Counted from the first letter of the stretch, positions 25,082-42,900 are shown. The stretch is DNA of 46,969 nucleotides from a virus (IMGVR_UViG_3300045988_152627), one strand, 5' to 3'. Notes: generated from the sequence alone by a model not told the origin. A program made the numbers and translations.

Positions 25082-25200
25082 CGGGTTATCTCCGGTTTAA
25101 CCAGGGCGGGTATCGCTCGGTTTCGGGTATAACATTAGGAAATTTTTTCCCACCTGTAAAGTACTTTTTATATAATTATATAATTATATAATTCTATGAC
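25082..25200 (-). promoter_or_regulatory. Promoter-leader cassette copy 1 (TTTACA-N17-TAATGT, about 50-nt leader, RBS GGAGAT)
   Basis: Minus-strand -35 at 25155..25160 and -10 at 25132..25137; near-identical to 32154..32275 and 42784..42900; (TATATAAT)x3 upstream of the -35. Confidence 0.6.
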
Positions 25201-25781
25201 ACTTGCCAGAGAGCATCATGCAACTGGATACCTCCATTGCACTGGTTGCCCCAGCCATGCCAGCCATCAGGTAAATCACCGCGAGCAAACAACTCAATAC
25301 GAGGAACATCGCCTAACAGCTTTACCAGCTTGTCACGGACCACATCAGGCTTCCGAGAATGCTCCAGACGAGGCGATGTAAACGACTGAATAATCCCCGC
25401 ATCAAGGCGGGTTGGCAGTTTGCCTTTTACCGCAAACAAGCAATCTTCACTGTTTGCACGAGTCATATGCCCCATCCCCATCACCAGCTTATCTGGTTGT
25501 CGGCTACCACATTTGTTCCATGTGAAGCCCTTCATGGTCATAAGCCTGAATCCCCATGCTTTCACCACCAGCAACGCTTCTTCTGGCTGAGTCGGAACCC
25601 ACCACATGGCCAACAAACACGATTCAGGATTAGCAAGCTGCCAGACAGGAATACGAGCAATCTCCTCAGCTTTCATCGTTGGATACTTAAAACCAGCGCC
25701 ACGATTCCCATCCTTACACTTGTCTTTGTATTCCCAGGGGGGATCTGCATAAATCAGATTAAACAATGCAATTGCCTCCAT
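25194..25781 (-). CDS. DNA N6-adenine methyltransferase, MT-A70 family
   Basis: 195 aa with the N-terminal DPPW motif (LIYADPPWEY). Confidence 0.75.
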   Translation of the reverse strand: MEAIALFNLIYADPPWEYKDKCKDGNRGAGFKYPTMKAEEIARIPVWQLANPESCLLAMWWVPTQPEEALLVVKAWGFRLMTMKGFTWNKCGSRQPDKLVMGMGHMTRANSEDCLFAVKGKLPTRLDAGIIQSFTSPRLEHSRKPDVVRDKLVKLLGDVPRIELFARGDLPDGWHGWGNQCNGGIQLHDALWQVS

Positions 25782-26083
25782 GTTAGTTATGTCTCCGCCG
25801 CTCAGGCAGTCATAACGCTGGCCAGCTCTACAGCAGACACAACGAAAAGGGCACTAACCAGACTGATTAATGCCCTTGCCTGTTGTGTGCCGGATATCGC
25901 CCGACAACGCTGTTTTGGTAACACGGCTACAGTTCCGTGCCGCTCCAGCTTTTACCCCTTTGCGGATAACAGGCCCTGCCTGTAACTTAGCCCCACGTTC
26001 GCCCGAAATGCGCACCAGGCACGCATAAAGATGAGCACGAAGGAAGTAACTCCACCGCGCTTATCTTTATGTGTGAGAGTGAA

Positions 26084-26159
26084 TTGGTGGCCCCTACCGG
26101 ATTTGAACCGATGACCGTGCGATTATGAGTCGCCTGCTCTAACCACTGAGCTAAGGGGC
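26084..26159 (-). tRNA. tRNA with CAU anticodon, most similar to tRNA-Ile2 (ileX-type); elongator Met not excluded
   Basis: 76-nt cloverleaf GGCCCCTTAGCTCAGTGGTTAGAGCAGGCGACTCATAATCGCACGGTCATCGGTTCAAATCCGGTAGGGGCCACCA: 7-bp acceptor stem, D and T arms, CTCATAA anticodon loop, encoded CCA. Confidence 0.85.
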
Positions 26160-26329
26160 CATATTTGATCTGTTTGTCTGGTGTGGCGCCGCGCACGAAA
26201 ATCCCAGCCAATAAATTCAGGATTTTTGGGCGCGGCGGCATATCAGACAAACATGGTTGATGCGTGCGCCCATGAGAAAAGCGCATAGAATGTTGTAACT
26301 ATATATTTATATAATTATAGAAATATATA

Positions 26330-26539
26330 TTACTTTCGGCAGTTGATTTCCCATGCCCTGTTATGAGCCAGAATATCTTTCTTTGTCTGGCGGTCCATAA
26401 CATCGATGTCGTGATCAGTCAGGTAGATGGGCTTTACCCAATCACAGGCGGTATCAACCACCACCGGGACGCTTCCACGACTCCCGCAGCTCGCGATCAA
26501 CATCGTCATCAGCCATATGGTTAACACTCTGCTGTACAT
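26330..26539 (-). CDS. o-spanin (Rz1-like lipoprotein)
   Basis: 69 aa with signal peptide and lipobox LIASC; partly nested in the 3' end of the Rz-like gene in another frame. Confidence 0.55.
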   Translation of the reverse strand: MYSRVLTIWLMTMLIASCGSRGSVPVVVDTACDWVKPIYLTDHDIDVMDRQTKKDILAHNRAWEINCRK

Positions 26540-26732
26540 TCCCCACCTCTTTTGTCACTTCTATACGCCGCTCCGCAGTGGCTTTTACGGCGGCTGCATT
26601 CTCATTAATGCGCTGCTTTTCAGCTTCATCTTCGGCCTTTTCTCGCCCCTTCATACGACCAAAACCAAATGCGCCGAATGCAACCAATATAATGGTGCCG
26701 ATAAATGACAAAACGGCTTTCAAACCAGTCAT
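26454..26732 (-). CDS. i-spanin (Rz-like)
   Basis: 92 aa; N-terminal TM helix then charged coiled-coil region; directly downstream of the endolysin. Confidence 0.6.
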   Translation of the reverse strand: MTGLKAVLSFIGTIILVAFGAFGFGRMKGREKAEDEAEKQRINENAAAVKATAERRIEVTKEVGNVQQSVNHMADDDVDRELRESWKRPGGG

Positions 26733-27271
26733 ACCACCACTCGCTCTTTCATCCAGCCATAGACAAACGACTCATTTGCTTCGCGTTTCTCCGCCAGGTC
26801 CAGATAACGGTCGCCCTGCGTACAGTTCAGGGCCGTCAGCATTACCCGTTCGCCGTCTTTTCCCCGATTCCCAAGATAAGCACGTAATGCCGCAATGGTG
26901 CGCGGGCCGATTCGCCCATCCACATCCATATCTGGATACAACTTCCCGCCACGGTTGAAAACATTCAACCAACGTTGAAGCATCTTCGTCGCCACAGTCG
27001 GCCCCATGTTGACGCCCGTATCACACATCTCCGCCGCAATATCAGGGGAAAATTGCGCCACTTGGTCAAAACGAGGTCCATACCAATAATCACCTTCAAG
27101 AATCATCAGTGCCTGTTCGCGGGTTAAATCGCGCATATCGCCACGGTATCCATGAGCACGGGCAGTGTTCTGAGTAATGCCCCACATTGTTGGGCCTCCC
27201 TTGTCGTCAGGGTGATCCACATAGCCGCCCTCTTTTCCAAGAATGCTGTTAAAAATCTCATCTTTGGTCAT
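26729..27271 (-). CDS. Endolysin, GH108-like N-terminus with peptidoglycan-binding C-terminus
   Basis: 180 aa starting MTKDEIFNSILGKEGGYVDHPDDKGGPTMWGIT, typical of GH108 phage lysins; sits between holin and spanins. Confidence 0.7.
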   Translation of the reverse strand: MTKDEIFNSILGKEGGYVDHPDDKGGPTMWGITQNTARAHGYRGDMRDLTREQALMILEGDYWYGPRFDQVAQFSPDIAAEMCDTGVNMGPTVATKMLQRWLNVFNRGGKLYPDMDVDGRIGPRTIAALRAYLGNRGKDGERVMLTALNCTQGDRYLDLAEKREANESFVYGWMKERVVV

Positions 27272-27590
27272 GATTAAACCCTAATGCGTCAACTATCCGC
27301 GCCAGATTGCCCCTGAAATACAGAACAACGATGCAGATAATCAGATTTCCAATAACCACCAGCCAGTGGGATTCTTGATAAAGACCGAACACATAACGGA
27401 AGGGAACATTGGCGTATACAATGACGTAGATATAAGCCAGCAAGGAAACAAATGGACGATGCCTGGAGTCTTTCCGTCGATAAAGCATCAGCGCCATTAC
27501 TATTACTGTGCAAAGCACCGCATTAATCAGTGCTGACGGGTCACTGCTTACCATTTGAACCCCCTCCACGTAAGCGGGAAAGCATTCCAA
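27258..27590 (-). CDS. Membrane protein, possible second holin or antiholin
   Basis: 110 aa with three hydrophobic helices; overlaps both neighbours. Confidence 0.4.
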   Translation of the reverse strand: MECFPAYVEGVQMVSSDPSALINAVLCTVIVMALMLYRRKDSRHRPFVSLLAYIYVIVYANVPFRYVFGLYQESHWLVVIGNLIICIVVLYFRGNLARIVDALGFNHDQR

Positions 27591-27936
27591 AGATGCTACC
27601 GAGATCCTGGCTGTTTACGAACGTGAGGATTTTAATTGTCAATGCAGCCACAATAACCGCACCAAGCGCATCAAGAGGACGATCGTTGTAGCTGGTCCAT
27701 TTGGCAAGAAATGAGCCAACTAACGGCGCTCCAATCACTCCAACAATGAACGATGTAAAGAAATAGCCAATCAGCTTGAGACGGCTAATATTCACCGCTG
27801 TAGCAACATAGAAAACAGCGCCAGCAAATGCCCCGAATACAACGCCGTAATCAATACCAGTTGCAATACCAAAAACGCTGGCACCCATCAGGCCACCAGC
27901 AGCAACGGCCGTACCGGAAATTGGTTCTGCTGACAT
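27541..27936 (-). CDS. Putative holin
   Basis: 131 aa with multiple Gly/Ala-rich TM helices; first gene after the terminator at 27950..27980. Confidence 0.5.
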   Translation of the reverse strand: MSAEPISGTAVAAGGLMGASVFGIATGIDYGVVFGAFAGAVFYVATAVNISRLKLIGYFFTSFIVGVIGAPLVGSFLAKWTSYNDRPLDALGAVIVAALTIKILTFVNSQDLGSIFGMLSRLRGGGSNGKQ

Positions 27937-27949
27937 TGAAATCCTCGTT

Positions 27950-27980
27950 AAAAAAAAAGCCCCGCCGAAAAAGGCAGGGC
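27950..27980 (-). terminator. Rho-independent terminator just upstream of the holin start (tR'-like position)
   Basis: Minus-strand hairpin GCCCTGCC-TTTTTC-GGCGGGGC followed by a 9-T run, then RBS GAGGA and the holin ATG. Confidence 0.6.
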
Positions 27981-28126
27981 TTTACAAAGCAACAAATTAC
28001 GCGGTAATCGCTTAACGCAGTTTTACTACGTTAAATGAAACGTTACACCCAGTTACCACCTAAAACAAGGCTTTTCCATAAAAAAACCTTCACATCGTGG
28101 TTAATCGATCAATAAAAAAGCAATGT

Positions 28127-28318
28127 TCAACTTTTCACCAACCGAACATCCCGACCAGGACTTCCATAATATTTGCCGATATGCCACAGCTTAAGTTGAG
28201 TAATCTTCTCCAACTTAACTCCCACAGAATCCAATTTCTGCCATGTTTTCGGTTGTATGTGCCTCATTACCCGCTCTGAATATCTAAATACTGCTCGTAG
28301 CCTCGCTAAATTGCTCAC
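28127..28318 (-). CDS. Hypothetical small protein
   Basis: 63 aa ORF coupled to the upstream 300-aa gene. Confidence 0.3.
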   Translation of the reverse strand: MSNLARLRAVFRYSERVMRHIQPKTWQKLDSVGVKLEKITQLKLWHIGKYYGSPGRDVRLVKS

Positions 28319-29217
28319 TTGTCGCCTCCTTTACGAATCTGCTCCGCCCACTCTTCAAGGGATTTCTCCGCATATTCACCAGACAGGCCATCAATCGGAT
28401 GCGGTTCATTAGCCAATTCTTCTTTCGCTGACAAAATCATGCGTGTAACGTCGAAAACTTCACGCAAAGACTTATTGATAAATCCGTGATTGAACGCAGC
28501 AGCAAGACGGCTGGCGGTATAGTTAATCCCCTCGTTGCGTGCTTCCGCACGTACTTCAGCAAGGAAAGCATCGGTGGCTGGGGTTTCGACATTAGGTCGA
28601 AGCTCATAATCACAAACTCTTTCAATCCATGGTGATACTCTGTCGCATTTCCTCTTCTTGCGTTCACCGACCTTGGTTGCCTGCTGAATAATTACCCCCC
28701 AGCAAATGCTTTCGACCTCTTCGCTCCATCCATCGCAAGCATCGCCTCTATAGTCGTCAATTGCAGCCTCAGCAGCAGCGATAGCCTCCTCAGCAGTTTT
28801 GTGACACTCGAAACTAAATTCAGAGCCATATGAGAAATACATAGCCCCGGCCTTCAGTCTTGCATTCTCCGCCGCCAGAGCCGCGCAACTGGCCTCCAGC
28901 TCTGCAATGCGTTTGCTTTGTGCCTCCCGTTCATTCAGCAACGCCTGCACTACTTCTGGGTTGAAAGCTGCGATATAACGAGCGTTGTTCTCTGCGTTTT
29001 TCTGTCCGTCAAAGCCGGTCCATTTGATAACGTCTTCACATCGTTCATCACCGGGCGTGTGCACCGCATACGTACCTGTACCCGTCGAAATAAACGCGAC
29101 CCATTCGCCCTGTGTTGCATGTTTTGCTATCTCACGTAGTGCCTGATAGTTAATTGCTGTGCTGTTAGTCATTCCAGGCCTCCAGCTCGTTCTGAATCTC
29201 CTCGTCAACCTCGTCAT
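28315..29217 (-). CDS. Hypothetical protein with central coiled coil (possibly ead/Ea22-like)
   Basis: 300 aa; ALLNEREAQSKRIAELEASCAALAAENARLKAG coiled-coil segment. Confidence 0.4.
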   Translation of the reverse strand: MTRLTRRFRTSWRPGMTNSTAINYQALREIAKHATQGEWVAFISTGTGTYAVHTPGDERCEDVIKWTGFDGQKNAENNARYIAAFNPEVVQALLNEREAQSKRIAELEASCAALAAENARLKAGAMYFSYGSEFSFECHKTAEEAIAAAEAAIDDYRGDACDGWSEEVESICWGVIIQQATKVGERKKRKCDRVSPWIERVCDYELRPNVETPATDAFLAEVRAEARNEGINYTASRLAAAFNHGFINKSLREVFDVTRMILSAKEELANEPHPIDGLSGEYAEKSLEEWAEQIRKGGDK

Positions 29218-29509
29218 TGGTGGCGTCTTCGTTCAGATGGTCGCGCGCCTCTTTGAGATACTGTTCACGGCGTTCGTGGTACCAGGCAGAGAACTCCGGC
29301 GACCATCCTCGATTAGCCCCCTGAAAATCTACCATCGCATTATCCTCGGCCATACGCTCGACCATGCAATCCGCGGTGTTCAGTGCAACCTCACGGATGT
29401 ACCCCCGCAGGTCGCGCTTACGCCAATACGGGCTATATTTTGAGTCGCAGCGGCCTTTAAATTCGACGGTCCAGCGACGGATGCAGCGTGCGTTAAGTGA
29501 TTTGCTCAT
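29165..29509 (-). CDS. Hypothetical protein
   Basis: 114 aa ORF overlapping its neighbours in the same operon. Confidence 0.35.
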   Translation of the reverse strand: MSKSLNARCIRRWTVEFKGRCDSKYSPYWRKRDLRGYIREVALNTADCMVERMAEDNAMVDFQGANRGWSPEFSAWYHERREQYLKEARDHLNEDATNDEVDEEIQNELEAWND

Positions 29510-29511
29510 AG

Positions 29512-30135: not shown

Positions 30136-30364
30136 GTTTTCAGACTTTCACCACAAAACGGGCAAAATGAGACTCGAATAGGTGATTTAGAAAACTCACC
30201 GGAACGCAACATCACCAAATCAGGTCCACGGGTTAAACTCTCATTCCAGATTTTGTATAGCAGTAAGCCTTTTCTTACTGAGCATTCAGCATCGTGCTCA
30301 AGAGACTTTGCCAATGCAGCACACGGCTCTATTCGATTGCCATTAATTCGACAATTTGATCCAC

Positions 30365-30730
30365 TCACTTCAACTCCTCCCGACGACGTTCCTGAAGCTC
30401 TAGCATTGCGGCTCGGAAATCCTGCCACCATTCCTCATCTGCAACGGGGGTGTTCCGCTCCAGCACCTTGTCCGCATCGGCGATCAGGTTTGCCAGACTC
30501 TTGTCTGAAATCTTCGTTACCGGAGTCGTTGGTTGCTCAACCTGCCCGATAGGTTTTATCGTGCTCAAAAGGAGGCGACGGCTGGAAAGTGGCGACCCAC
30601 AACGGCGCCCATCTTCCTTGCGATATGTTTCTTTCGGACCAACACACCAGGTTGTCGGCGTTTCGCGTAACTTCACTTTTTTCTCACCATCAATGGTGAT
30701 GATTATTCCGGTATGGGTTTTGATGCTCAT
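30365..30730 (-). CDS. Hypothetical protein
   Basis: 121 aa ORF with coupled stop/start to the upstream gene. Confidence 0.35.
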   Translation of the reverse strand: MSIKTHTGIIITIDGEKKVKLRETPTTWCVGPKETYRKEDGRRCGSPLSSRRLLLSTIKPIGQVEQPTTPVTKISDKSLANLIADADKVLERNTPVADEEWWQDFRAAMLELQERRREELK

Positions 30731-31029
30731 GCCACAGCCCCTCTCAACGGCTTAACTTTGGCTAATAAGGTGTTAAACAACATGGAGTTAGGATTCATGC
30801 CAAATGGCAATTCCGGTTTAGCGGAGTAGTACAGGCAACCATTTATTTTCCTGGTTGTTATCTGTCCTTCGGCAACCATGCTTCTCAGTCTGCAACGCAT
30901 AGAGTTCTGCGACACACCAATGTGCTCCGCGATTACGTCCACTTTTGAACATGGGTGATCGGTCAGGAAATTAATCACATCTTGGGGGTTAATAATTTTG
31001 CGTTTCATTGTCGAGGCGTCCTTATACAT
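30727..31029 (-). CDS. Hypothetical DNA-binding protein (winged-helix-like)
   Basis: 100 aa; central segment IAEHIGVSQNSMRCRLRSMVAEGQI resembles a winged HTH. Confidence 0.4.
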   Translation of the reverse strand: MYKDASTMKRKIINPQDVINFLTDHPCSKVDVIAEHIGVSQNSMRCRLRSMVAEGQITTRKINGCLYYSAKPELPFGMNPNSMLFNTLLAKVKPLRGAVA

Positions 31030-31085
31030 TTATATAAATATATAATTCTATATACGGCGGGAGACATCCCGCCGTAGGCTTACTG

Positions 31086-32153
31086 TCAGGCTTTCAATAG
31101 CGATTCTTTCAGATATCGGGCATCAGCCAGGGCGTTTGGAGTAATCTTGCGAACCCATGCATTACGGGTTGGACTCCACTTAAAGGCGCGTGATTTAAGC
31201 AGCGAACGAATGTTTGCCTCTGGTTTGCCAGGGAAATAAAACAGGATGCGGTTATCCTCTGGATCTATCTCCATAGAAAAGCCGTCGTATTCTTCGCGCT
31301 GTGCTCCTGTTACAGACTTGACCGATTCAAGCTCCTTAATACGGCTCTGTAGTCGTTTGATTTCGGCGTTATTGTTGCTCAGTGCGTATGAAGGGAATCC
31401 GATGCGCCCACAGAAATCTCCGGCCAGTAACTCTTTGGCTTCGCTTTCTGTAAACCTGAGATCGATTAATGCAGAAAGCTGCTGTAATTGGTCTTTTTTG
31501 TATTTGCGAATGGCCTTATTTGCGGCCTTCATTTTGACGTGTGACTTCATGCAGCCTTGCAGCTTACGAAGCAACTTAAATAGCGCATCAGGATCATCAG
31601 ACGAAATTCCATTACGACCAACACCTGCGGCTTTGCTCTCGTAGTGTGATGCTTTACTTTCGCATTCAACAAACGTTTTTCTGAATAACGCATCAGCTTT
31701 AGACAAACGGCGGCGATGGCCTTTCGCGCTATAATGGTCAACTAAAATCGGCTGGCCTAACGGGATCACATCCAACAGGTCATGCGCTCGCTTATGCGCT
31801 ACCGCACCTTCTTTTCTGGCTTTTTCTGCACGAGCAATATATCGGGCAAGACGCGCGTTCTGGCGTTCCTGATAGGTGTTTACGTAATCATCTCCGCGCT
31901 GCTGCTGTTCAAGCCATGCTTTGCGCAGATCTTCTGTTACGTCCACCAGCTCCGCAGGGATACAACCAGTTTGGGCTTCATAAGAGTAACCATCCTCATA
32001 GATACGCCCATCGTCTTCAACAAAGAAAAAGGTTTCGTGCTCATCGCTTTTGACCATACGACCATTAACATGGCGTAATAGGTAGCCAGTATCAGTGCTT
32101 AACAGGCTGTTAGGGTTGTTGATCCAGTCAGAAATAATTACTTGTTTATTCAT
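31086..32153 (-). CDS. Hypothetical protein (DUF3560-like?)
   Basis: 355 aa; first gene after promoter-leader cassette copy 2; family assignment by recall only. Confidence 0.4.
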   Translation of the reverse strand: MNKQVIISDWINNPNSLLSTDTGYLLRHVNGRMVKSDEHETFFFVEDDGRIYEDGYSYEAQTGCIPAELVDVTEDLRKAWLEQQQRGDDYVNTYQERQNARLARYIARAEKARKEGAVAHKRAHDLLDVIPLGQPILVDHYSAKGHRRRLSKADALFRKTFVECESKASHYESKAAGVGRNGISSDDPDALFKLLRKLQGCMKSHVKMKAANKAIRKYKKDQLQQLSALIDLRFTESEAKELLAGDFCGRIGFPSYALSNNNAEIKRLQSRIKELESVKSVTGAQREEYDGFSMEIDPEDNRILFYFPGKPEANIRSLLKSRAFKWSPTRNAWVRKITPNALADARYLKESLLKA

Positions 32154-32275
32154 CAGATTTCTCCGGTTTAACCAGGGCGGGTATCGCTCGGTTTCGGTTA
32201 TAACCTTAGGAAATTTTTTCCCACCTGTAAAGCACTTTTTATATAAATCTATAATTATATATTTATAGATTTTCG
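32154..32275 (-). promoter_or_regulatory. Promoter-leader cassette copy 2, directly downstream of the Q-like gene
   Basis: Same sequence as copies 1 and 3 with a few substitutions (TAAGGT at the -10 position); TATAAATCTATAATTATATA motif upstream. Confidence 0.55.
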
Positions 32276-32322
32276 ATGTTCCCGATATCTACACACCATC
32301 AAAACAGCTCAAAATGACACTT

Positions 32323-32700
32323 TTACTCTCTTCGCTTTTTCAAATAATCGACAACATACGCCCTGGCTTTTGCCAGCTTCCGGCGATACTGTCTGAGACT
32401 AAGAGAAAGGGCGTGGGCTTTATCAATATGCGGTGCATTTATGTCGAGGCCCCGAATCTCCCACGCCCCGTATTCAATTCGGACAACCAGCGCCGCAGTC
32501 TCATCAACTACCGTGAGGGCCGTCACCGCTCCCTCGATACTGGTTTCCAGTGAGTCATTTGGTGCGCCGCCCCCTCCGGTAAACTGGCAACGCGTAACCA
32601 TCATCATTTCTAACATCGACGCGAAACCGCTACGGGCGTTGCAGCCATTGCGCACCCACAGCGCCCATAGCTCAAACAAGCTATCCAGATCGCGTCTCAC
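32323..32700 (-). CDS. Putative late antiterminator, Q-like
   Basis: 125 aa; LFELWALWVRNG...VDETAALVVRIEYG...RRKLAKARAYVVDYL pattern recalled from small Q-type antiterminators; lies between nin-like genes and a strong promoter. Confidence 0.45.
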   Translation of the reverse strand: MRRDLDSLFELWALWVRNGCNARSGFASMLEMMMVTRCQFTGGGGAPNDSLETSIEGAVTALTVVDETAALVVRIEYGAWEIRGLDINAPHIDKAHALSLSLRQYRRKLAKARAYVVDYLKKRRE

Positions 32701-32703
32701 TGT

Positions 32704-34673: not shown

Positions 34674-34847
34674 TTAACGAACTCCAATTAAAACCACGAT
34701 ATGTGGTATTAAAACCACATATCGTGAGTTTTTCAATGGGCGAAACAAAAAATAACCTTCTAATTGTGGTCCACCTCTCGTCTTACCATGTGAAAACCAC
34801 TAAATGTGGTAATGTATAAATAACCCACCATTCACGATTGATGAGAC
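34674..34847. promoter_or_regulatory. Immunity-region operator/promoter block with three CCAC-N5-GTGG-type operators
   Basis: ACCACGATATGTGGT (34693..34707), ACCACATATCGTGAG (34713..34727), ACCACTAAATGTGGT (34796..34810) between divergent repressor and Cro-like genes. Confidence 0.6.
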
Positions 34848-35545: not shown

Positions 35546-35560
35546 AACCACGCTTTGTGG
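35546..35560. promoter_or_regulatory. Operator-like palindrome ACCACGCTTTGTGGT overlapping a promoter for 35597..35971
   Basis: Same CCAC-N5-GTGG pattern as the immunity-region operators; followed by TTGACA and TATAAA elements and RBS AAGAGG. Confidence 0.45.
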
Positions 35561-35596
35561 TTTTGACAACATGTGAAAGTATAAAAGAGGCTACGC

Positions 35597-35971
35597 ATGG
35601 AATTACATACAGCCAATAAAAACGAAACTCTGATCACTGCTGGAATCGAAATCCAAGCGTTGAACATAGCGATTGAGTGTATGTTATGCCAAATCATTGA
35701 TAATGAGAAAGATATCGACTGGATAGAATCTATCCTTCATCTGGCATCAGAACAAAAAGTCTGCCTCAAAACGGCCTTACAATACGATGTGCCAGCGGTA
35801 TCGAAGCTGTGCCAGCCATTGATGGCATATAACAGGGCTATTACTTCTGTATGCCTCATGATTCTTGATGAAAACACCCCTCTTAGTGACCGCTCAGAAG
35901 CTGCTCTAACCCTCTCACGTAAACAGCGACAGCTAGCAAATCAACTGATATCAACGATAGCTGACCTCTGA
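35597..35971 (+). CDS. Hypothetical protein in the rex-equivalent position downstream of the repressor
   Basis: 124 aa ORF with strong RBS, followed by terminator hairpin 35976..35999. Confidence 0.45.
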   Translation: MELHTANKNETLITAGIEIQALNIAIECMLCQIIDNEKDIDWIESILHLASEQKVCLKTALQYDVPAVSKLCQPLMAYNRAITSVCLMILDENTPLSDRSEAALTLSRKQRQLANQLISTIADL

Positions 35972-36106
35972 CTGAAAGCGGGCTAACGCCCGCTTATATG
36001 ATTATAGATTTATATAATTATATAAAACGCTTTTCATCCGCCAAAAAGTTGGTTATGCTTACCTCGTTCTATAAATATAGATTTATAGAATTATATAACC
36101 AAACAC

Positions 36107-36775
36107 ATGGAGTCTCGACAAATGACTATCTCTGTAGGTATTTTCAACGGAAAAGGCGGCGTAACCAAATCAACAATTGCCCGTGCTTTAGCAGTTGCTT
36201 ATGCAAAGGCCGGCTGGAATGTATGCCTGATCGATATGGATGTGCTTAACGGAACGGTAACGCGTTGGGTACAACGCAGAATGGCCAACAATATCGAACC
36301 TGCAATCGCGGCGCAGCCGTGCGGCACGCCATCACAAGTCCAGAAAATCATCGAATCAGAAGTATACGACCTGGTTATCGTTGATGGCGGTGCCTACGCA
36401 TCTGAATCAGTACCGAAGCTCTCTGAATTTCTGGATATGGTTATTTTGCCAACCAGATTCTCTACCGATGACCTAGAAACCACCGTTAACACAGCTCACG
36501 GCATCGTTAAAAAGGGTGTACCAATCAAGAAAATTTGCATGGTGTTTTCCGGCGCGGCTGAAAACGAAGCTGACTATATTGAAGCCCAAGAGTACCTGGC
36601 TAATACGCCATACTTTGTTGTCGATAAGTACATTCCCCACAAGCCAGCTCTGAGCAAAGCTCAGGATAAGGGCTTAAGCCTCATTGAGTGCTCATACGTT
36701 GCGCCACGCAAAAAGGCAGACGACGTTATTCAGGGGATTATCAACCAGCTTGAGGCTCTGACTACTGCCGCGTAA
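36107..36775 (+). CDS. parA: ParA-family partition ATPase (small, type Ib)
   Basis: 222 aa with deviant Walker A NGKGGVTKST and later VIVDGGA motif. Confidence 0.85.
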   Translation: MESRQMTISVGIFNGKGGVTKSTIARALAVAYAKAGWNVCLIDMDVLNGTVTRWVQRRMANNIEPAIAAQPCGTPSQVQKIIESEVYDLVIVDGGAYASESVPKLSEFLDMVILPTRFSTDDLETTVNTAHGIVKKGVPIKKICMVFSGAAENEADYIEAQEYLANTPYFVVDKYIPHKPALSKAQDKGLSLIECSYVAPRKKADDVIQGIINQLEALTTAA

Positions 36776-36818
36776 TATATAATTATAGTTTTATAGATTT
36801 ATATAAGATGGGATACAC

Positions 36819-37067
36819 ATGGCCGCACCATCAAAACCACCAAAGAAGAACAGCAAAGGCGTACCGCCATCGATCGAACAACCGCAGGTTTTCGACCCGA
36901 CTGAAACGCCAACCAGAACCAAATCAGGTGGGGCACAAATGGCGTTTAACGTCGACCCTGAATTTAAACGCGAGTACAAAACGTTCGCCAGCTCAATGGA
37001 TATGTCATTGAAAGAAGTGCTGACAAAATCTTTTGAGTTACTCAAGGCTCAATACAACCAGAAGTAA
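36819..37067 (+). CDS. ParG-like ribbon-helix-helix centromere-binding protein
   Basis: 82 aa; Pro/Lys-rich tail then RHH-like MAFNVDPEFKREYKTFASSMDMSLKEVL; directly downstream of parA. Confidence 0.6.
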   Translation: MAAPSKPPKKNSKGVPPSIEQPQVFDPTETPTRTKSGGAQMAFNVDPEFKREYKTFASSMDMSLKEVLTKSFELLKAQYNQK

Positions 37068-37096
37068 GAGAAGGTGACGGCCTCCAGCGCCAACTG

Positions 37097-37279
37097 TTGG
37101 CCGTCGCGACACAACAAGGGGAATTTGTTATGTCCGAGCAACAATATACACGGTTACTAAAAACTCGTCTAATAGACCTCAAACGGCTGCAAGCTGGCCG
37201 CTTATTTGCCCTGCTATCCACCAGGCCAGAATGGGTACGTGAAGCAGTTCTGAAAGGCTTAATGCGCTCCAGCGTTTAA
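37097..37279 (+). CDS. Hypothetical small protein
   Basis: 60 aa ORF followed by terminator hairpin 37296..37311. Confidence 0.3.
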   Translation: MAVATQQGEFVMSEQQYTRLLKTRLIDLKRLQAGRLFALLSTRPEWVREAVLKGLMRSSV

Positions 37280-37295
37280 ATTCAACCATAAAAAA

Positions 37296-37311
37296 GGCCC
37301 CCGAAGGGGCC
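37296..37311. terminator. Bidirectional terminator hairpin GGCCCCCGAAGGGGCC
   Basis: Perfect GC-rich hairpin flanked by an A-run upstream and T-rich sequence on the opposite strand. Confidence 0.55.
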
Positions 37312-37877
37312 TAATCGCTACTTGCTGCTAATGTTTATCGTCACATTCAGAGCGTTATCAGTAATCTTCCAACCCTCCCCATGTGGCGTAAACAAAGCCC
37401 CAGTAACAACGATAAAAATACACATACAGTATTTTTTCATTGTATGGCCCTTACAGGCCGTTTCACGGCATCCCCACCGACGAAAACAACGCGAGAGCAA
37501 GCACGGCTGCTTGTGCTTGCATGTACGGCAACAGGAAATCCTCCCCTAAAGTCGGTGCCCGGGTGCGAATCGGCGGGAAGGTCCACAGGTATTTTACGAT
37601 TATTTTAAGATTAGTAATAGGAAATAAATTAAACGAAAAAACCAGTTTATTTTCACAAAATCAGTAACCTACCCACAATCTGTGAGTTTGCAGACACAAC
37701 AAGAACCACAATTTTTTGAAGCATAATAGTGGACTATTATTACCTTTTGGGTAAAATCAACTTGCTGCTTGTGCTTGCGTGGTTGTTTATACAACAACGT
37801 AATGCTGAAAGGACCGCGAATCCGATCAGCACGAAAGAACCGTCCTCAATAGGGCGGTTTTTTTGTTTCTTCACTCA

Positions 37878-38417: not shown

Positions 38418-38554
38418 TTTTTATCCCCATATTGAATTTTTTCTTTGTTCCCAACTTTAACAAAACACCACAACTTAGGAATGTATAGTTCCTTAAATGA
38501 ATCATACATTCCCACCTTCGGTATATCAAGAAAATTAAAAGCTCGGCATTCAAA

Positions 38555-38569
38555 CCCACACTATGTGGT
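38555..38569. promoter_or_regulatory. Operator-like palindrome CCCACACTATGTGGT upstream of the antirepressor operon
   Basis: CCAC-N5-GTGG pattern 25 bp upstream of a TTGACA element at 38593..38598. Confidence 0.45.
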
Positions 38570-38864
38570 TGTCTCTGTTAAAATCCCGCCGTATTGACAT
38601 GAATGCGCCATTGGTGGACACTTTCCGAGCCGTAGCAAAATCTACGGTCGGGATTAGCCTCCTGAATAACACGATGGCGCATACCGCGTTAGCGGTTTTT
38701 TTATGCGTAGAGCACTGTTACGCCCAAATTATGGTGGGTCGTACAGGGGCGGAGAAATCCGCGCCGGTTCGTCATTGTGTCCGGTAAGGCTAACCCTGTA
38801 CGGCTCACCACCATTTGATTAGCCTCGAATGGCGGTGATAGTTCCATATATTGGAGATATCACA

Positions 38865-39056
38865 ATGACAAACTTACCCCATGACTATTACGTCAACCTC
38901 GTAAAGATCCTTCTCAAGAAAGCCTCATACGCCGATAAATTCCGCCTGGCTGAAATAATCGAGCGCGAAGCTATGCGCATCGCCAGCAACGATAACGCTG
39001 TTTCTGACGCAAAAATCTCCCTCGTAACCAAAGTAGTTATGGGAGGTGCAAAATGA
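38865..39056 (+). CDS. Hypothetical small protein, coupled to the antirepressor
   Basis: 63 aa from ATG 38865 (RBS GGAGAT); stop overlaps the antirepressor start. Confidence 0.35.
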   Translation: MTNLPHDYYVNLVKILLKKASYADKFRLAEIIEREAMRIASNDNAVSDAKISLVTKVVMGGAK

Positions 39057-40195
39057 AAACGCTTCCGACCGTTAACACCCTACAGCCTATCCTGCATAAC
39101 CAGATCCCCGTTATCACCACGGAGCTGCTTGCCAAACTATATGGCTGTAGCGTCGAATGTCTTCACAGAAATCACCACCGTAATAAGTCCCGGTTTACAG
39201 AAGGAAAACATTTCATAGTTGTAAAAGGTACAGATCTCCAAAGTTTGAAAATCTCTTTAAGAGATTTTCAAACCATCGCGAATAACGTTAGAAAGCTCAT
39301 CCTCTGGACCGAACGCGGGGCTGCACGTCACGCTAAAATGCTCGAAACCGATCAGGCATGGGATGTATTCGAACGGCTGGAAGACTGCTACTTCAACCAG
39401 AACGCGCAAACGGCCGCGACCGTAACCGTCTCACCAAACAATGCTCGTGAGGTTGTCGATACGCTCAACGCTAAACCAATGTATTACGTTAAGGTGTGCA
39501 ACAACGAGCCACTCACAACCTCAGCCGATGTTGCCCAAGCATTCAGCACCACAAACAATTCCATCGTTATGGCCATCGATGCGTTACGTATTCCTCGCAC
39601 AGCTGCGGCGCGTCACTTCTTTAAAGAACAACGACCGCTGGAAGGAAGCGACCGCGAAATAACAATCTATCGCATGACAAAAGACGGATTTACCTTGCTC
39701 ATGGAAAGTATCGACGGTCCAGGCGTGAAGGATATCAAGCTGGCCTACATTGAAGCCTTTAACGCTATCAGCAGCGTGTTAAAGGCAGAATACGAGCGAA
39801 TGCTATACAACCGACTGTATCAGGAAACAAAGATTATCCGAACGGCAACAGAACATCATCGGCTATTAACGGAACCAAACTACCGCAAGACACTAATCAA
39901 AGAATTTGACAAGGCGACGGAGAAAACTAAAGCGGCACTAAATCTACCAACAATGACTAAAGATGATGTGATATCAGCCTTACTTCTTGATCTGCTCAGA
40001 AACGCCAGAGCACTTATCAGTTTTGACGAAAACCTGAATCCTCAGCTCAAGCTACTACCACCGACAGGCAAAGTAGTCGACCAAGCAGATCACAACAGCA
40101 TACTCAGCGTACTGGATGCAAACCTGCCAGCCAGGACACTACAGGAGCTGATAAAAATATCTGCGGATAAACTGGCCGCAGGTGCAAAACCATAA
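39053..40195 (+). CDS. Phage antirepressor (KilA-N/ORF6N-like N-terminus plus Rha-like domain)
   Basis: 380 aa; N-terminal ITTELLAKLYGCS...KHFIVVKGTDL and central TSADVAQAFSTTNNSIVMAIDAL resembling the Rha motif. Confidence 0.65.
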   Translation: MKTLPTVNTLQPILHNQIPVITTELLAKLYGCSVECLHRNHHRNKSRFTEGKHFIVVKGTDLQSLKISLRDFQTIANNVRKLILWTERGAARHAKMLETDQAWDVFERLEDCYFNQNAQTAATVTVSPNNAREVVDTLNAKPMYYVKVCNNEPLTTSADVAQAFSTTNNSIVMAIDALRIPRTAAARHFFKEQRPLEGSDREITIYRMTKDGFTLLMESIDGPGVKDIKLAYIEAFNAISSVLKAEYERMLYNRLYQETKIIRTATEHHRLLTEPNYRKTLIKEFDKATEKTKAALNLPTMTKDDVISALLLDLLRNARALISFDENLNPQLKLLPPTGKVVDQADHNSILSVLDANLPARTLQELIKISADKLAAGAKP

Positions 40196-40200
40196 AACAA

Positions 40201-40219
40201 AGCGCCCGATTTGGGCGCT
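40201..40219. terminator. Bidirectional terminator between convergent genes
   Basis: Hairpin AGCGCCC-GATTT-GGGCGCT between 39053..40195 (+) and 40230..40865 (-). Confidence 0.5.
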
Positions 40220-40229
40220 TCTTCAATTC

Positions 40230-40865
40230 TTAATATTTCGGTGTAATCAGTAGCGATACATGCCCTGATTTGTCACGAGAAACGTAATACTCGCCTCTCT
40301 TAGTCTTGAACTCAGCTTTCTGCATATCTGATTTAACAATCTGCTCTAACTGCGCAATCACGGTGTCTCTTTCACTTGACGCATCCAAGACTTCAACTGC
40401 TACGGCCATAGAAAGCAAGGAATCAGAGTTAGGCTTGGATACTCGCCATAATAACTCAGAAATCTTCCCATCCTTATCAACTCTAGCCCGACCGTTAACA
40501 GATGAGTTGATGGCAAATTCAACGGTGTTGTTACCTTGTTTAACAGACTTAATTCTTATAGTGGAGGTGGCTTTTCCTGATGTAGCGATGCCTTCAAGGT
40601 CATCATTATATAACTGCTTAAACTTATCTACGGTCACACCATCAAAAGCAGCTCCGGTAGTAGCCGCAGTGTTGGAGTCTTCTGGGATCAAGGTCACAGC
40701 CGCAAGAGTATTAACAACTACAAAAGTAGCAATCCCGAGAAAGCCACTCACTAAAACAGCTTTGAACTTACCACCAGAAGACGAGGCACATTGTTTCCGA
40801 TATGCGCCACGAACTACGAAGAAACACAAAATCAGGCTAATAATAAACGCCACCAGCATCCCCAT
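40230..40865 (-). CDS. Membrane-anchored protein of unknown function
   Basis: 211 aa; two N-terminal TM helices followed by a soluble Ser/Thr-rich domain. Confidence 0.45.
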   Translation of the reverse strand: MGMLVAFIISLILCFFVVRGAYRKQCASSSGGKFKAVLVSGFLGIATFVVVNTLAAVTLIPEDSNTAATTGAAFDGVTVDKFKQLYNDDLEGIATSGKATSTIRIKSVKQGNNTVEFAINSSVNGRARVDKDGKISELLWRVSKPNSDSLLSMAVAVEVLDASSERDTVIAQLEQIVKSDMQKAEFKTKRGEYYVSRDKSGHVSLLITPKY

Positions 40866-41500
40866 AGAAATCTCCTTTTAGATATAAGGGTAAAGCAATA
40901 TCGTATTAGATCTTCCTTAAGACACAACCCCCCCTCCCCCCATACAGGGTGCCCTTTACCGGAGTTCCGGCCCCTTCTCAAAAGCATCAAAAAAAGCTCG
41001 AGATCGAGTACCGGAACTCATGCCACCAGATAGCTCCACATCGTTTCCAATGCTTCGCCGCCGTGTGCGCCCTGTGGCCCACAATCATGCCATTGGTCGT
41101 CTGATATACCTTCTTCTGCTCATTGAGCACAGGCGAGTTGTCGCACTCCTGCCTTTCTCAGACTCGACTTAGTTTAGATCGCTGTTCCTGGCTTGCGTCA
41201 GCACACTTTCCCCTTGTACGCATACCCGCGCGCCACTTCGCCCAAAAACACCGAACCCAACGAAGTAGCAAAGACAACGACGCGAGCGTGAGTCTGAAAC
41301 GTGCACCAGTAAAAAAGGGGTTGCAGGCGCAAAAAGATTTGATTATCTTTAGACGCAAGAAAGCCGCCCCAATCAAGAGGTGTCTTTTTAAATCCAGCCT
41401 ACCAAGCAAGATTTAAATTTCAGACTGAAAACCGCCCGGCAAGGCGGTTTTTGTCTTTCTGGCGCTTACATTACACCACCAGAAAACGATCCGTAAAGGA

Positions 41501-41773
41501 TCATTTGATCCCTTGTTCCAATTCTGCCGACACTTTAACCTTTTCCCATACAAGGGTTTGCAGCCTTAACAGAATCGCATCTTTATCAAGGTGTGAAAGA
41601 TCCTTAACCATATCGTCAAACGACAGAACGCGAATGGCCATCTCAATGACCCTCGGCGGCTCCCCCTTCTCATATCGCTTATATGTAGCCAACGATATCC
41701 CAAACTCTTCGGCTGCTCGCTCCTGCGTCCAGTTCATCCCACGACGCCATAATTTCAATTCGTAACCCGTCAT
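41501..41773 (-). CDS. XRE-family HTH regulator
   Basis: 90 aa; HTH WTQERAAEEFGISLATYKRYEKG; divergent from 41875..42300. Confidence 0.6.
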   Translation of the reverse strand: MTGYELKLWRRGMNWTQERAAEEFGISLATYKRYEKGEPPRVIEMAIRVLSFDDMVKDLSHLDKDAILLRLQTLVWEKVKVSAELEQGIK

Positions 41774-41874
41774 TACATCCTCTACCTTTCCCTAGATATT
41801 CAATAAATTAGACATAGCCACTCACGACAAAATAAGATGTATTAACAATCCAATCTTTAGGCTTTAGGTAAAAA

Positions 41875-42300
41875 ATGAGTTCATCTGCTTTTGTCACCGT
41901 GGTCACTGGTGTAAGTGTTTTTGTTCTAGGCCAACTCATCGTCAAAGGAGCTATTGAGCCTTACATTTCATTCAGGGAACAACTAGGGAAAATATCCAAT
42001 CTGTTATTATGTAACCAAGCAAAAATAGTGAATCCTGGCTCGAACTTAAAGCCAGAAATCATTCATGATCTAAAAGATTCCGCAGCACAGTTAATGGCAA
42101 AATATTCCACTTTACCTTTCTATATCAAAAAGTTACATATCGGCTTTCGTCTTGTTCCATCAGCCACCGAGATTCTTGGGGCAGCTCGAAATTTGAACTA
42201 TATAGCGTCAATACATGAAGGTAAGACTGGGGAGAATCCATCTAAGCATCTCGAAGAGATTGGCCATATGCTCAAAATACCAACTACCTATTCAAGCTAA
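41875..42300 (+). CDS. Hypothetical protein with N-terminal TM helix
   Basis: 141 aa; N-terminal hydrophobic helix SAFVTVVTGVSVFVLGQLIV; low-GC gene. Confidence 0.4.
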   Translation: MSSSAFVTVVTGVSVFVLGQLIVKGAIEPYISFREQLGKISNLLLCNQAKIVNPGSNLKPEIIHDLKDSAAQLMAKYSTLPFYIKKLHIGFRLVPSATEILGAARNLNYIASIHEGKTGENPSKHLEEIGHMLKIPTTYSS

Positions 42301-42366
42301 CCCAATGTAAGTTATCGGCTTGCCCCACAATAAGTTATCTATCTTCAAACGCCCCTATATTAACAC

Positions 42367-42393
42367 TCGCAAAGTGTCAAAATGACACTTTGC
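42367..42393. terminator. Bidirectional terminator, 11-bp perfect stem
   Basis: GCAAAGTGTCA-AAA-TGACACTTTGC between convergent genes 41875..42300 and 42403..42783. Confidence 0.55.
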
Positions 42394-42402
42394 GCATTGT
42401 GT

Positions 42403-42783
42403 TTACTTAACGAGGAATAAAAATGGTTTATCGTTCGGCGGTGTACTCGGGGCTGGCTCGCTTTTGCTCATACGATCAGTGTACCAGGCCAGCTCCTTGT
42501 CAAAGTAAGCCTGATTAAAATAGGCCATGAATGTGGTTTCAAATCCATAACGACCGCTAATACGCAGCATCTGATTGCCGTTCTCTGTTTCCAGATATAC
42601 CTGGGCACGTTCCTGATTCTCCTTCAGCCAAGTTAAAGCCTCGTCGCACGAGGACACACGATACTCATCATCGTAGCCGTCATCGATGCGGCTTGAAGGA
42701 GAACGGCAAATCACGCCAACAGAACCAGCCAGGATAGTTTGAATTTTAAGGAAAGCGTTTTTGCGGATTTTAATCATGCTCAT
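42403..42783 (-). CDS. Hypothetical protein
   Basis: 126 aa; start codon sits exactly at the end of promoter-leader cassette copy 3. Confidence 0.4.
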   Translation of the reverse strand: MSMIKIRKNAFLKIQTILAGSVGVICRSPSSRIDDGYDDEYRVSSCDEALTWLKENQERAQVYLETENGNQMLRISGRYGFETTFMAYFNQAYFDKELAWYTDRMSKSEPAPSTPPNDKPFLFLVK

Positions 42784-42900
42784 CGGGTTATCTCCGGTTT
42801 AACCAGGGCGGGTATCGCTCGGTTTCGGGTATAACATTAGGAAATTTTTTCCCACCTGTAAAGCACTTTTATATAAATCTATAATTATATAATTCTATGA
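42784..42900 (-). promoter_or_regulatory. Promoter-leader cassette copy 3 (TTTACA-N17-TAATGT)
   Basis: Minus-strand -35 at 42857..42862 and -10 at 42834..42839; about 88 bp identical to copy 1 from the ATG up to the -35. Confidence 0.6.

Follow-up and report, generated by a model that had tools for sequence, protein, structure and literature searches.

A ~47-kb phage-plasmid of E. coli type, analysed here as one window (the whole stretch of DNA, 46,969 nucleotides), carries short AT-rich tracts dispersed along its genome, which raises the question of what protein reads them and what they do for the element. A sequence-only reading had described them as palindromic motifs at eight or more intergenic sites, and had proposed that one DNA-binding protein, either the RHH partition protein or a nucleoid protein such as IHF or H-NS, links partition with promoter control, or that the sites act as UP elements. 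All eight sites are present where that reading placed them and the motif family is real, but its defining feature had been missed, as the sites share one regular structure rather than a loose resemblance. Each is a 30-bp array built of four hexamers, T[A/C]TA[T/G]A, which A/T spacers of 2 bp set at a period of 8 bp. The window holds exactly eight such arrays of four units apiece, spread over 25.2-42.9 kb (Table 1). They are effectively intergenic, as had been claimed; array 1 overlaps the final 5 nt, stop codon included, of an MT-A70 methylase ORF, and array 3 touches the next gene only if translation begins at an alternative ATG further upstream, the start annotated in relatives corresponding to 31008.

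When the window was scanned with a three-unit pattern allowing up to two mismatches, 16 matches were found, two per site and none outside the eight sites, compared to 0.03 expected from dinucleotide shuffles. A plain scan for AT-richness returned the same eight tracts together with three unrelated ones. Shuffling the array sequences themselves regained the pattern in 0 of 20,000 cases, a first-order Markov model fitted to the arrays produced it in 0.64% of 40-mers, and identity within the arrays is 0.79 at both lag 8 and lag 16. Given these Markov and shuffle controls, strict four-unit phasing at 8 bp is not expected from composition alone.

This phasing bears on the possibility that the arrays are AT-rich promoter furniture, that is, UP elements, -10-like TATAAT boxes, AU-rich translational enhancers or targets of host H-NS, IHF or Fis. 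Their A+T content exceeds 90%, TATAAT occurs within them, a consensus promoter scan flags hexamers inside them, they stand in the UP-element position at four promoters, and in three cases a ribosome-binding site lies just downstream. H-NS favours AT-rich DNA of this kind, and incidental H-NS binding to the arrays may occur. In addition to phasing beyond what composition provides, this explanation must accommodate arrays 2 and 7, which lie away from promoters, and the IHF core WATCAANNNNTTR, sought by reading the eight arrays, is in none of them.

Table 1. Positions of the arrays and of the promoters, genes and terminators around them, counted from the first nucleotide of the window.
Feature	Coordinates	Strand	Sequence	Context
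73-aa gene	24860-25081			driven by P1
P1	25132..25160	-	TTTACA-17-TAATGT	
Array 1	25169..25198	.	TATATAatTATATAatTATATAatTCTATG	8 nt upstream of the P1 -35
tRNA-Met	26085-26160	-		
Array 2	26300..26329	.	TATATAttTATATAatTATAGAaaTATATA	between end of lysis cassette and tRNA-Met
Gene adjoining array 3	30727-31008	-		its ribosome-binding site adjoins array 3
Array 3	31023..31052	.	TATACAttTATATAaaTATATAatTCTATA	between DUF3560 terminator hairpin and ribosome-binding site of next gene
DUF3560 terminator hairpin	31056-31076			
DUF3560 gene	31086-32153			driven by P2
P2	32203..32231	-	TTTACA-17-TAAGGT	
Array 4	32240..32269	.	TATATAaaTCTATAatTATATAttTATAGA	8 nt upstream of the P2 -35
125-aa ORF	32323-32700			
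124-aa ORF (orf124)	35597-35971			
Array 5	35995..36024	.	TATATGatTATAGAttTATATAatTATATA	ends 6 nt upstream of the -35 of the putative par promoter
par promoter (putative)	36031..36059	+	TTTTCA-17-TATGCT	read from sequence
Array 6	36068..36097	.	TCTATAaaTATAGAttTATAGAatTATATA	starts at about +2 of the putative par transcript; stops 9 nt short of the start codon of parA (36107)
parA	36107..36775	+		222-aa short Walker-type ParA; type Ib format
Array 7	36776..36805	.	TATATAatTATAGTttTATAGAttTATATA	occupies gap between parA and RHH gene
82-aa ORF	36819..37067	+		ParG-like protein; putative centromere-binding protein and proposed array binder
126-aa gene	42403-42783			driven by P3
P3	42834..42862	-	TTTACA-17-TAATGT	
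Array 8	42870..42899	.	TATATAaaTCTATAatTATATAatTCTATG	7 nt upstream of the P3 -35; directly downstream of higA terminator
higA terminator	42931-42909			

A promoter/leader of ~108 nt with a TTTACA -35 occurs three times, with array 1, 4 or 8 at each copy. This triplicated promoter is carried by 62 complete plasmids (PLSDB), and the P1 copy holds an inverted repeat, GGAAA-N3-TTTCC, in its spacer. Arrays 5, 6 and 7 surround parA, and arrays 2 and 3 are at neither location, so that the earlier placement of the sites at the triplicated promoter or par holds for the first two groups and not for the last pair. The arrays at P1-P3 and the one upstream of the putative par promoter all end 6-8 nt upstream of a -35, and arrays 2, 3 and 7 adjoin no obvious promoter.

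The par locus has the layout of a type Ib partition system, with arrays 5 and 6 flanking the putative promoter, array 7 following parA, and a small gene with an RHH-modelled product immediately 3' of parA, its ORF starting 44 nt past the parA end. Type Ib operators and centromeres usually lie where these arrays do, at the par promoter and in the space separating parA from the RHH gene. ParA lacks an N-terminal DNA-binding domain and matches CbiA, ParA and MipZ in Pfam; its match to the NCBIfam family ParA_partition covers residues 10-211 at 78.5 bits, under the 180-bit cut-off.

The 82-aa protein itself has no Pfam or NCBIfam match, and 16 of 45 distant homologues match Pfam RHH_10. In its AF2 model, residues 41-80 have pLDDT above 90 and form one strand and two helices, the RHH arrangement, with QMAFNVD as the predicted beta-strand, and residues 1-40 form a basic N-terminal tail of low pLDDT that is predicted to be disordered. 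When the model was compared with the PDB using Foldseek, the best matches were nearly all RHH proteins (StnY, CdbA, ParG 1p94, CopG, ParD, AmrZ and Arc), with target-normalised TM scores of ~0.5-0.9 and E-values of 0.4-2, which are weak because the RHH domain is tiny. No match to the protein was obtained among PDB sequences by phmmer or profile search, where 1p94 was absent at E up to 10, and ParG emerges as a structural match only, at 12% identity.

Relatives of the element bear on the identity of the binder. All eight arrays are found at syntenic sites in a Yersinia phage, the E. coli ATCC 25922 plasmid, a K. aerogenes plasmid and two Salmonella plasmids, even though in the Salmonella plasmids the promoter adjoining the arrays is just 83-85% identical; the sequence-only reading, which staked itself on conservation as well as enrichment, is borne out on both. 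Among these conserved arrays, units swap between T[A/C]TA[T/G]A forms, and frame and unit number stay constant with the exception of two Salmonella arrays that have three units.

Homologous parA and small-protein modules, at 40-50% identity, are also present in Serratia and Vibrio phage-plasmids with different virion gene sets, where the arrangement of arrays around par is the same and the motif changes. Serratia elements L006, L007 and L021 retain the cI-orf-parA-RHH module, with an RHH protein 40-50% identical to that of the window, and the repeated promoter cassette; their arrays, par-flanking and dispersed alike, are of a TTAAAKA/TMTTTAA type, and the spacing from array to -35 is unchanged despite the switch. 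The window par promoter appears homologous to the Serratia one, TTTACA-17-TAAGCT, as judged by comparing the two sequences. Vibrio elements L010, L022 and L023 carry arrays of the GCACGAAA type at par and, in addition, at as many as six sites elsewhere, some of them co-oriented in gaps of the late operon immediately before ribosome-binding sites. Cross-scanning the three lineages with the three motif types gave 4-8 clusters of a lineage's own type, near 0 in shuffles, and no clusters of either other lineage's type. As the par-proximal and dispersed arrays switch together, they should have a common binder evolving with the element. The predicted DNA-facing residues of the RHH beta-strand track the motif, being Q-A/S-N with TATATA, x-N-N with TTTAAA and P-N-K with GCACGAAA.

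The case that this covariation makes for the RHH protein is indirect, built on adjacency and on elimination. No proteins other than ParA, the RHH protein, DUF1064 and a 125-aa protein are common to the window and the Vibrio element, and the RHH protein is the sole DNA-binding candidate common to all three lineages. Should another protein that coevolves with the backbone bind the arrays, leaving the RHH protein with a different target, the candidates would be orf124, which directly precedes array 5 and could be assigned to no family, and the 125-aa ORF and DUF1064, which are common to the window, Serratia and Vibrio. We regard this as improbable. No orf124 homologue was detected in the Vibrio element, though the array system is present there; DUF1064 and the 125-aa ORF belong to the early operon, distant from par, and among lineages with wholly different motifs DUF1064 remains 62-65% identical. 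In type Ib systems, moreover, arrays bracketing the par promoter are as a rule read by the small RHH protein encoded downstream. Three further candidates were rejected: CI, which has distinct operators of its own (ACCAC-N5-GTGGT), RepA, with no arrays in its origin region, and ParB/Srx, absent from the L006, L007 and L010 annotations; neither CI nor ParB/Srx is common to the window and the Vibrio element.

Motif switching also makes the promoter-furniture explanation very improbable, since the Serratia arrays have a different AT motif, the Vibrio ones contain GC and are not AT-rich, and each type matches its own par operator. With GC in the dispersed Vibrio arrays, neither composition nor UP-like character is conserved, and the proposal of UP elements is not supported. 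The single DNA-binding protein proposed earlier survives in one of its two forms: a nucleoid protein such as IHF or H-NS does not fit a motif type that switches with the par module, nor the missing IHF core, whereas the RHH partition protein is strongly supported by the three-way covariation of par-proximal arrays, dispersed arrays and ParG-like protein, and by its RHH model.

We therefore propose, with a probability of about 0.7, that the eight arrays are sites for the 82-aa RHH protein, acting as the centromere-binding partner (the ParB/ParG role) of a type Ib system. The RHH fold is a prediction from the model, and we infer array binding, centromere activity and the direction of the transcriptional effect. 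Each 8-bp unit would take one RHH dimer, and four contiguous units would build a cooperative complex, the occupied arrays becoming partition sites that recruit ParA, whose ATPase the flexible basic N-terminal tail may stimulate. The centromere would thereby be divided into eight small modules across ~18 kb. The same complexes could double as operators. At the par promoter, an array ending 6 nt before the -35 and another from about +2 would allow autoregulation; at the sigma-70 promoters P1-P3, the array would span about -43 to -72, over a likely proximal UP-like A-tract, and the RHH protein would most likely damp transcription of the three single-gene units to a degree that follows how much of the protein is present. 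Operator function cannot hold for every array, because arrays 2 and 3 and the Vibrio intra-operon arrays have no recognisable promoters.

By analogy with known systems, the best reading is that the arrays are parS/operator sites like those of omega of pSM19035 and ParG of TP228, dispersed as in N15. In the Streptococcus plasmid pSM19035, as in the window, a small RHH centromere-binding protein (omega) is paired with a short Walker ParA (delta), and separate arrays of short contiguous direct and inverted repeats at several promoters serve there as both parS and operator. Six pSM19035 parS arrays overlap three promoters, and ParA activation requires at least four contiguous repeats (PMC9499535), the number present in every window array. 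The pSM19035 unit is 7 bp, WATCACW, at 7-10 per array, unlike the four 8-bp units with a TATA-type core seen here; omega targets copy-number, par and toxin-antitoxin promoters, compared with par and three single-gene cassettes in the window. The pSM19035 host is Gram-positive and sequence similarity to the window system is undetectable, with omega not among the sequence or structural matches listed for the 82-aa protein.

ParG of the ParG/ParF system of plasmid TP228 is like the 82-aa protein in architecture only, with ~80 aa, a flexible tail at the N-terminus and an RHH at the C-terminus; by sequence, the 82-aa protein does not belong to Pfam ParG. Operator and centromere of ParG consist of 4-bp boxes in both orientations, one dimer per box, with AT-rich 4-bp spacers, giving the same 8-bp period, and the operator doubles as centromere (PMC3130281), as proposed for the window arrays. 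The box reads ACTC, unlike the TATA-type hexamer of the window, and the 20 TP228 boxes are clustered at a single parH-OF locus upstream of parFG, unlike the dispersed arrays.

These systems also inform a narrower alternative, in which the RHH protein binds the arrays and the dispersed ones serve a single function, either as extra centromere or, with the par-proximal arrays as centromere, as regulon operators. Compact phage genomes offer only short intergenic gaps, and the Vibrio arrays in late-operon gaps fit placement by free space; conversely, a constant 6-8 nt to the -35 at four promoters fits a regulatory design. Four TP228 boxes alone give about half of centromere activity (PMC3130281), but the pSM19035 arrays serve both roles (PMC9499535). 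A centromere-only role has difficulty explaining why spacing to the -35 was kept through the Serratia motif switch without a promoter-related role, and a regulation-only role has difficulty with arrays 2, 3 and 7. We consider a single function possible but on the whole unlikely.

For the dispersal itself, the linear phage-plasmid N15 offers a parallel, its centromere being split over several genome sites (IR1-4) rather than one tandem block (PMC7205306). As in the window, the Sop sites are scattered through a phage-plasmid genome; N15 is nevertheless type Ia, with a large HTH ParB (SopB) that is capable of spreading and whose sites are single 16-bp palindromes, in contrast to the type Ib, RHH-based, phased arrays here. 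Ravin and Lane in 1999 and Ravin et al. in 2008 reportedly placed the N15 sites in regions tied to phage gene expression, and in the latter work Sop is said to aid late gene expression instead of repressing it. One protein acting at many dispersed operators is also a feature of KorB (ParB) of IncP RK2, of the P1 C1 operators and of the stoperators of cluster A mycobacteriophages. KorB, like the proposed RHH protein, doubles as operator-binding and partition protein, whereas C1 and gp71 are immunity repressors and not partition proteins, and all three systems employ HTH folds, with sites that are either single palindromes or asymmetric, in place of phased arrays. The co-oriented intra-operon arrays of Vibrio resemble stoperators in placement.

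A broader extension, which we regard as speculative and rather doubtful, is that the RHH partition protein is a genome-wide organiser. Its centromere would be deliberately split into minimal four-unit modules, and variable cargo genes would come under its control through a portable unit made up of array, promoter, spacer operator, leader and translation start. If true, one RHH protein would couple segregation, copy-number sensing and lysogeny-phase or lytic gene expression, the co-oriented Vibrio arrays would be stoperator-like roadblocks, and the RHH ParB would be a second immunity or dosage regulator in a widespread group of phage-plasmids whose virion modules are interchangeable.

Accessory genes of Enterobacteria are commonly carried by phage-plasmids, and little is known, P1 and N15 apart, about the coordination of plasmid maintenance with the expression of phage genes in such elements. 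One widespread family of them seems to pair an RHH partition protein of type Ib with some eight minimal arrays scattered over the genome, so that one small partition protein would most likely act as both segregation handle and multi-promoter regulator, a dual design that is known from few plasmids and is unreported for this phage-plasmid family. The three natural specificity classes, with matched changes in protein and site, offer a system for studying DNA reading by the RHH beta-strand, and could show the minimum number of contiguous units for a working centromere and reveal whether partition complexes control neighbouring promoters. The arrays also provide a simple sequence signature for recognising such elements and their incompatibility or specificity groups.

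Each of the eight intergenic sites at which a sequence-only reading had placed a dispersed family of AT-rich palindromic motifs is present in the window, and the sites share a regular architecture that this reading had left unstated. Each array consists of four T[A/C]TA[T/G]A hexamers with 2-bp A/T spacers, giving four 8-bp units over a total of 30 bp, and array self-identity is 0.79 at lags 8 and 16 compared with 0.18-0.61 at other lags. The comparison with shuffled sequence that the same reading had called for bears out the enrichment, as a three-unit pattern allowing up to two mismatches matched 16 times, twice in every array and nowhere else in the window, against 0.03 matches expected from dinucleotide shuffles. 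Shuffling the arrays themselves regained the pattern in 0 of 20,000 trials, and a first-order Markov model trained on the arrays produced it in 0.64% of 40-mers. An AT-richness scan of the window returned the eight array tracts together with three unrelated tracts. Extreme AT content does not account for the pattern.

Coordinates of the arrays and associated features (window positions unless a relative is named)
Feature	Position (nt)	Description
Array 1	25169 (start)	
Array 2	26300 (start)	between lysis cassette and tRNA-Met
Array 3	31023 (start)	between DUF3560 terminator hairpin and ribosome-binding site of gene 30727-31008
Array 4	32240 (start)	
Array 5	35995 (start)	
Array 6	36068 (start)	
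Array 7	36776 (start)	in the gap between parA stop and next gene
Array 8	42870 (start)	
Repeated cassette copies	24815-25198, 31056-32269, 42368-42899	array, promoter, leader, start region AACCGGAGATAACCCGATG
Cassette-driven genes	24860-25081; 31086-32153; 42403-42783	73-aa gene; DUF3560 gene; 126-aa gene
Array + ctcgacaATG start regions	31005-31052, 36090-36110	
Same, Serratia relative L006	38064-38110	
Same, Serratia relative L007	27671-27730	
parA	36107-36775	222-aa short Walker ParA
RHH candidate gene	36819-37067	82 aa, next ORF after parA
ACCAC-N5-GTGGT	34693-34707, 34796-34810, 35547-35561, 46078-46092	
GGAAA-N3-TTTCC	25138-25150, 32209-32221, 42840-42852, 44444-44456	
ParB/Srx N-terminal-domain proteins	19306-19896, 21189-22568, 22562-23185 (-)	synteny with ATCC 25922 plasmid annotation
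ryfA	37290-37586 (-)	Rfam, above gathering score
isrK	38629-38702 (+)	Rfam, above gathering score
C4 antisense RNA	38727-38815 (+)	Rfam, above gathering score
Vibrio relative L010 (PQ189289.1), dispersed arrays	5210, 19251, 20694, 26387, 29738, 36537	
L025 (NZ_CP019191.1), sites	22101, 22995-23034, 23065-23100, 23749-23787	

Arrays 1, 4 and 8 lie 8, 8 and 7 nt, respectively, upstream of the -35 of three near-identical minus-strand copies of a promoter (TTTACA-17-TAATGT, with TAAGGT in copy 2), each with a conserved leader (roughly 45 nt) and then a start region after it. Behind each copy stands one gene and then a hairpin or terminator, and in Serratia relatives unrelated small genes stand behind the same cassette, which has the appearance of a portable unit for expressing variable cargo. 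Judged against its Serratia counterpart (TTTACA-17-TAAGCT), the par promoter of the window would be TTTTCA (36031-36036)-17-TATGCT (36054-36059); array 5 would then end 6 nt upstream of its -35 and array 6 would start at about +2. A translation start region, ctcgacaATG, is found directly 3' of an array at both parA and the gene after array 3, and likewise in Serratia relatives; this common region suggests an ancient duplication of an array-plus-start module.

The 46,969-bp window is related to circular E. coli plasmids of ~48 kb, such as the ATCC 25922 plasmid NZ_CP009073 (about 97% identity over two-thirds of the plasmid/early region of the window), and is comparably near to E. albertii, E. 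fergusonii and K. aerogenes plasmids and to the Yersinia phages vB_YpM_39, 41 and 44. Because the records of these relatives join myovirus structural and lysis genes with a CI-like repressor, an antirepressor, RepA, HigBA and ParA, the window is a phage-plasmid. The promoter cassette was found in 62 PLSDB plasmids, at 187 places in all and three times in nearly every record. Conservation in related elements, which the sequence-only reading had named as a test of its sites, was found throughout, with all eight arrays syntenic in five of five fully examined relatives (a Yersinia phage, the ATCC 25922 plasmid, a K. aerogenes plasmid and two Salmonella plasmids). Units swap among TATATA, TCTATA, TATAGA and TGTATA in these relatives with the 8-bp frame retained; the Salmonella plasmids, in which the promoter is only 83-85% identical, have two arrays with three clear units. 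A literature search of open-access papers found no published description of the arrays or of the partition system of this phage-plasmid family, an absence that is not proof; the Yersinia HQ103 paper was set aside, as the phage there is unrelated and 32 kb in size.

The decisive evidence from sequence comparison is a change of motif in step with the par module. The Serratia phage-plasmids CP083756 (myovirus-type) and NZ_CP074139 (siphovirus-type) have the cI-orf-parA-RHH-antirepressor-RepA module and the repeated promoter cassette as in the window, with 53-55% identity in ParA and 40-50% in the ribbon-helix-helix (RHH) protein. Their parA-flanking arrays are built of TTAAA[G/T]A / T[C/A]TTTAA units instead of TATATA, and arrays of this type also lie ~9 nt upstream of the repeated promoter -35 and in front of the array-3 gene homologue. 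Vibrio phage 10N.237.312.C11_PE002A, whose ParA shows 43% identity and whose RHH protein shows 43% in its C-terminal part, carries two inverted arrays that flank the par promoter, each made of four 8-bp units, TTTCGTGC / GCACGAAA, and six further such arrays occupy intergenic gaps across the genome (17 matches versus 0.44 expected). Both patterns are seen again in related IMG/VR contigs, which were retrieved with a ParA alignment. In a 3x3 cross-scan, the TATATA type gave 8 clusters each in the window, the ATCC 25922 plasmid and the two Salmonella plasmids but none in Serratia or Vibrio, the TTAAAKA type gave 4-6 clusters in Serratia-type loci and 0 elsewhere, and the GAAA type gave 4-6 clusters in Vibrio-type loci and 0 elsewhere, with about 0 in shuffles. 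Serratia arrays were counted by scanning for clusters of 7-mers; a pattern that required strict hexamers in an 8-bp frame was discarded, as it detected too few arrays there because the inverted units are offset.

As the par-side and dispersed arrays switch alike with the par module, they would share one binder, whose specificity appears to evolve with that module. Neither the phased structure nor the lineage-specific switch of motif, including to a GC-containing unit, can be accounted for by host nucleoid proteins, UP elements, -10 boxes or AU-rich translation enhancers. Of the readings suggested from sequence alone, the RHH partition protein is favored by the covariation of motif and par, and IHF, H-NS and UP elements are disfavored by the phasing and the switch. 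Another co-evolving protein of the element may be the binder, but no candidate for this lies next to the arrays and also occurs in every lineage; ParA, the RHH protein, DUF1064 and a 125-aa protein are all that the window has in common with the Vibrio element.

The product of the next ORF after parA matched nothing in Pfam, NCBIfam or PDB-sequence searches, and a k-mer-based homologue search returned only relatives of at least 79% identity. An exhaustive HMMER search reached a wider family of about 80-aa proteins with roughly 30-50% identity (62 representatives at E up to 1e-3). Its alignment shows conservation of a basic N-terminal tail (KPPKK..KG.PP) and, in the C-terminal part, a strand-helix-helix pattern; 16 of 45 members match Pfam RHH_10 and 9 of 45 match Antitox_RHH. 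With this alignment, AlphaFold2 modeled residues 41-80 at pLDDT >90, with helices at 47-59 and 64-80 preceded by an extended segment and a low-confidence tail. The best Foldseek matches in the PDB were nearly all ribbon-helix-helix proteins (StnY, CdbA, ParG 1p94, CopG, ParD, AmrZ and Arc), at an RMSD of 1-2 Å over about 42 residues; the small size of the domain keeps the E-values weak (0.4-2). By sequence the protein falls outside the ParG family; its predicted architecture is that of TP228 ParG. In the RHH beta-strand, the residues predicted to face DNA vary with motif class, the strand reading QM(A/S)FNVD with TATATA, xMNFN(V/M)D with TTTAAA and PLNFK(V/R)(D/S) with GCACGAAA.

Several other elements were considered. 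RepA iterons were ruled out, as the repA/ori region is without arrays, and so were the ParB/Srx-domain proteins near the terminase as binder, which are missing from the Serratia and Vibrio element annotations. In the window, three proteins with this N-terminal domain adjoin the terminase region, apart from the parA module. A reading of the arrays as CI operators was likewise rejected, as the CI-type palindromes ACCAC-N5-GTGGT form a separate set (5 matches versus 0.15 expected), with sites in the interval that separates the CI-like repressor gene from the divergent early operon, upstream of a 124-aa ORF and just upstream of repA; the fifth match (23431), inside a coding region, is probably due to chance. 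These palindromes are likely CI operators, which suggests that CI would also control replication. A GGAAA-N3-TTTCC inverted repeat (4 matches versus 0.52 expected) falls within the 17-bp spacer of all three repeated-promoter copies and in a fourth promoter, that of a 99-aa gene (44124-44423) lying downstream; it has a Serratia counterpart, TAGGA-N7-TCCTA, and is probably the operator of another regulator. Separately, isrK and C4 lie directly upstream of an ORF6N/Rha antirepressor gene (39053-40195), an arrangement resembling the immI antisense control of the antirepressor in P1 and P7.

The reading with the best support is a type Ib partition system in which an RHH centromere-binding protein reads arrays of four 8-bp units. 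In TP228, a ParG dimer occupies each 4-bp box, whichever way the box is oriented, with 4-bp spacers between boxes, and the ParG operator also functions as a centromere (PMC3130281). The omega protein of pSM19035 binds six separate arrays overlapping the copS, delta and omega promoters and activates the ParA ATPase only where four or more repeats are contiguous (PMC9499535), a minimum that matches the four units of the arrays here, although the omega heptad differs from the repeat unit of the window. N15 offers a precedent for a split centromere in a phage-plasmid, with four IR sites (PMC7205306), although its Sop system is type Ia. Given these precedents and the type Ib reading, we propose that the eight arrays would act as dispersed minimal parS modules, those at the par promoter and the three promoter copies doubling as operators. 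Transcription would more likely be damped than activated, because the protein has to be there while the element is a plasmid, and the arrays, at about -43 to -72, overlie the UP-proximal A-tract. Centromeres only, operators only, or both all fit the evidence.

In L010, a Vibrio relative, all six dispersed GCACGAAA-type arrays follow gene orientation and occupy short gaps immediately ahead of ribosome-binding sites, also within the late structural operon, a placement that recalls mycobacteriophage stoperators. Inspection of Erwinia pETR006-a and Y. pestis pTP33, where the RHH match extends over 36 aa at only about 50% similarity, revealed no clear phased arrays in front of parA. L025, a 28.6-kb plasmid that carries type IV secretion genes, encodes a ParA of 46% identity and a 77-aa protein of the same RHH family; its par region has TATA-type 8-bp arrays, a further array lies about 1 kb off and other TATAA palindromes occur elsewhere; dispersed sites therefore may not be confined to phage-plasmids. 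The logic of the proposed system combines known ones (ParG-, omega- and N15-like), and its value lies in three natural specificity classes and in a modular array-promoter cassette that drives different cargo genes by lineage.
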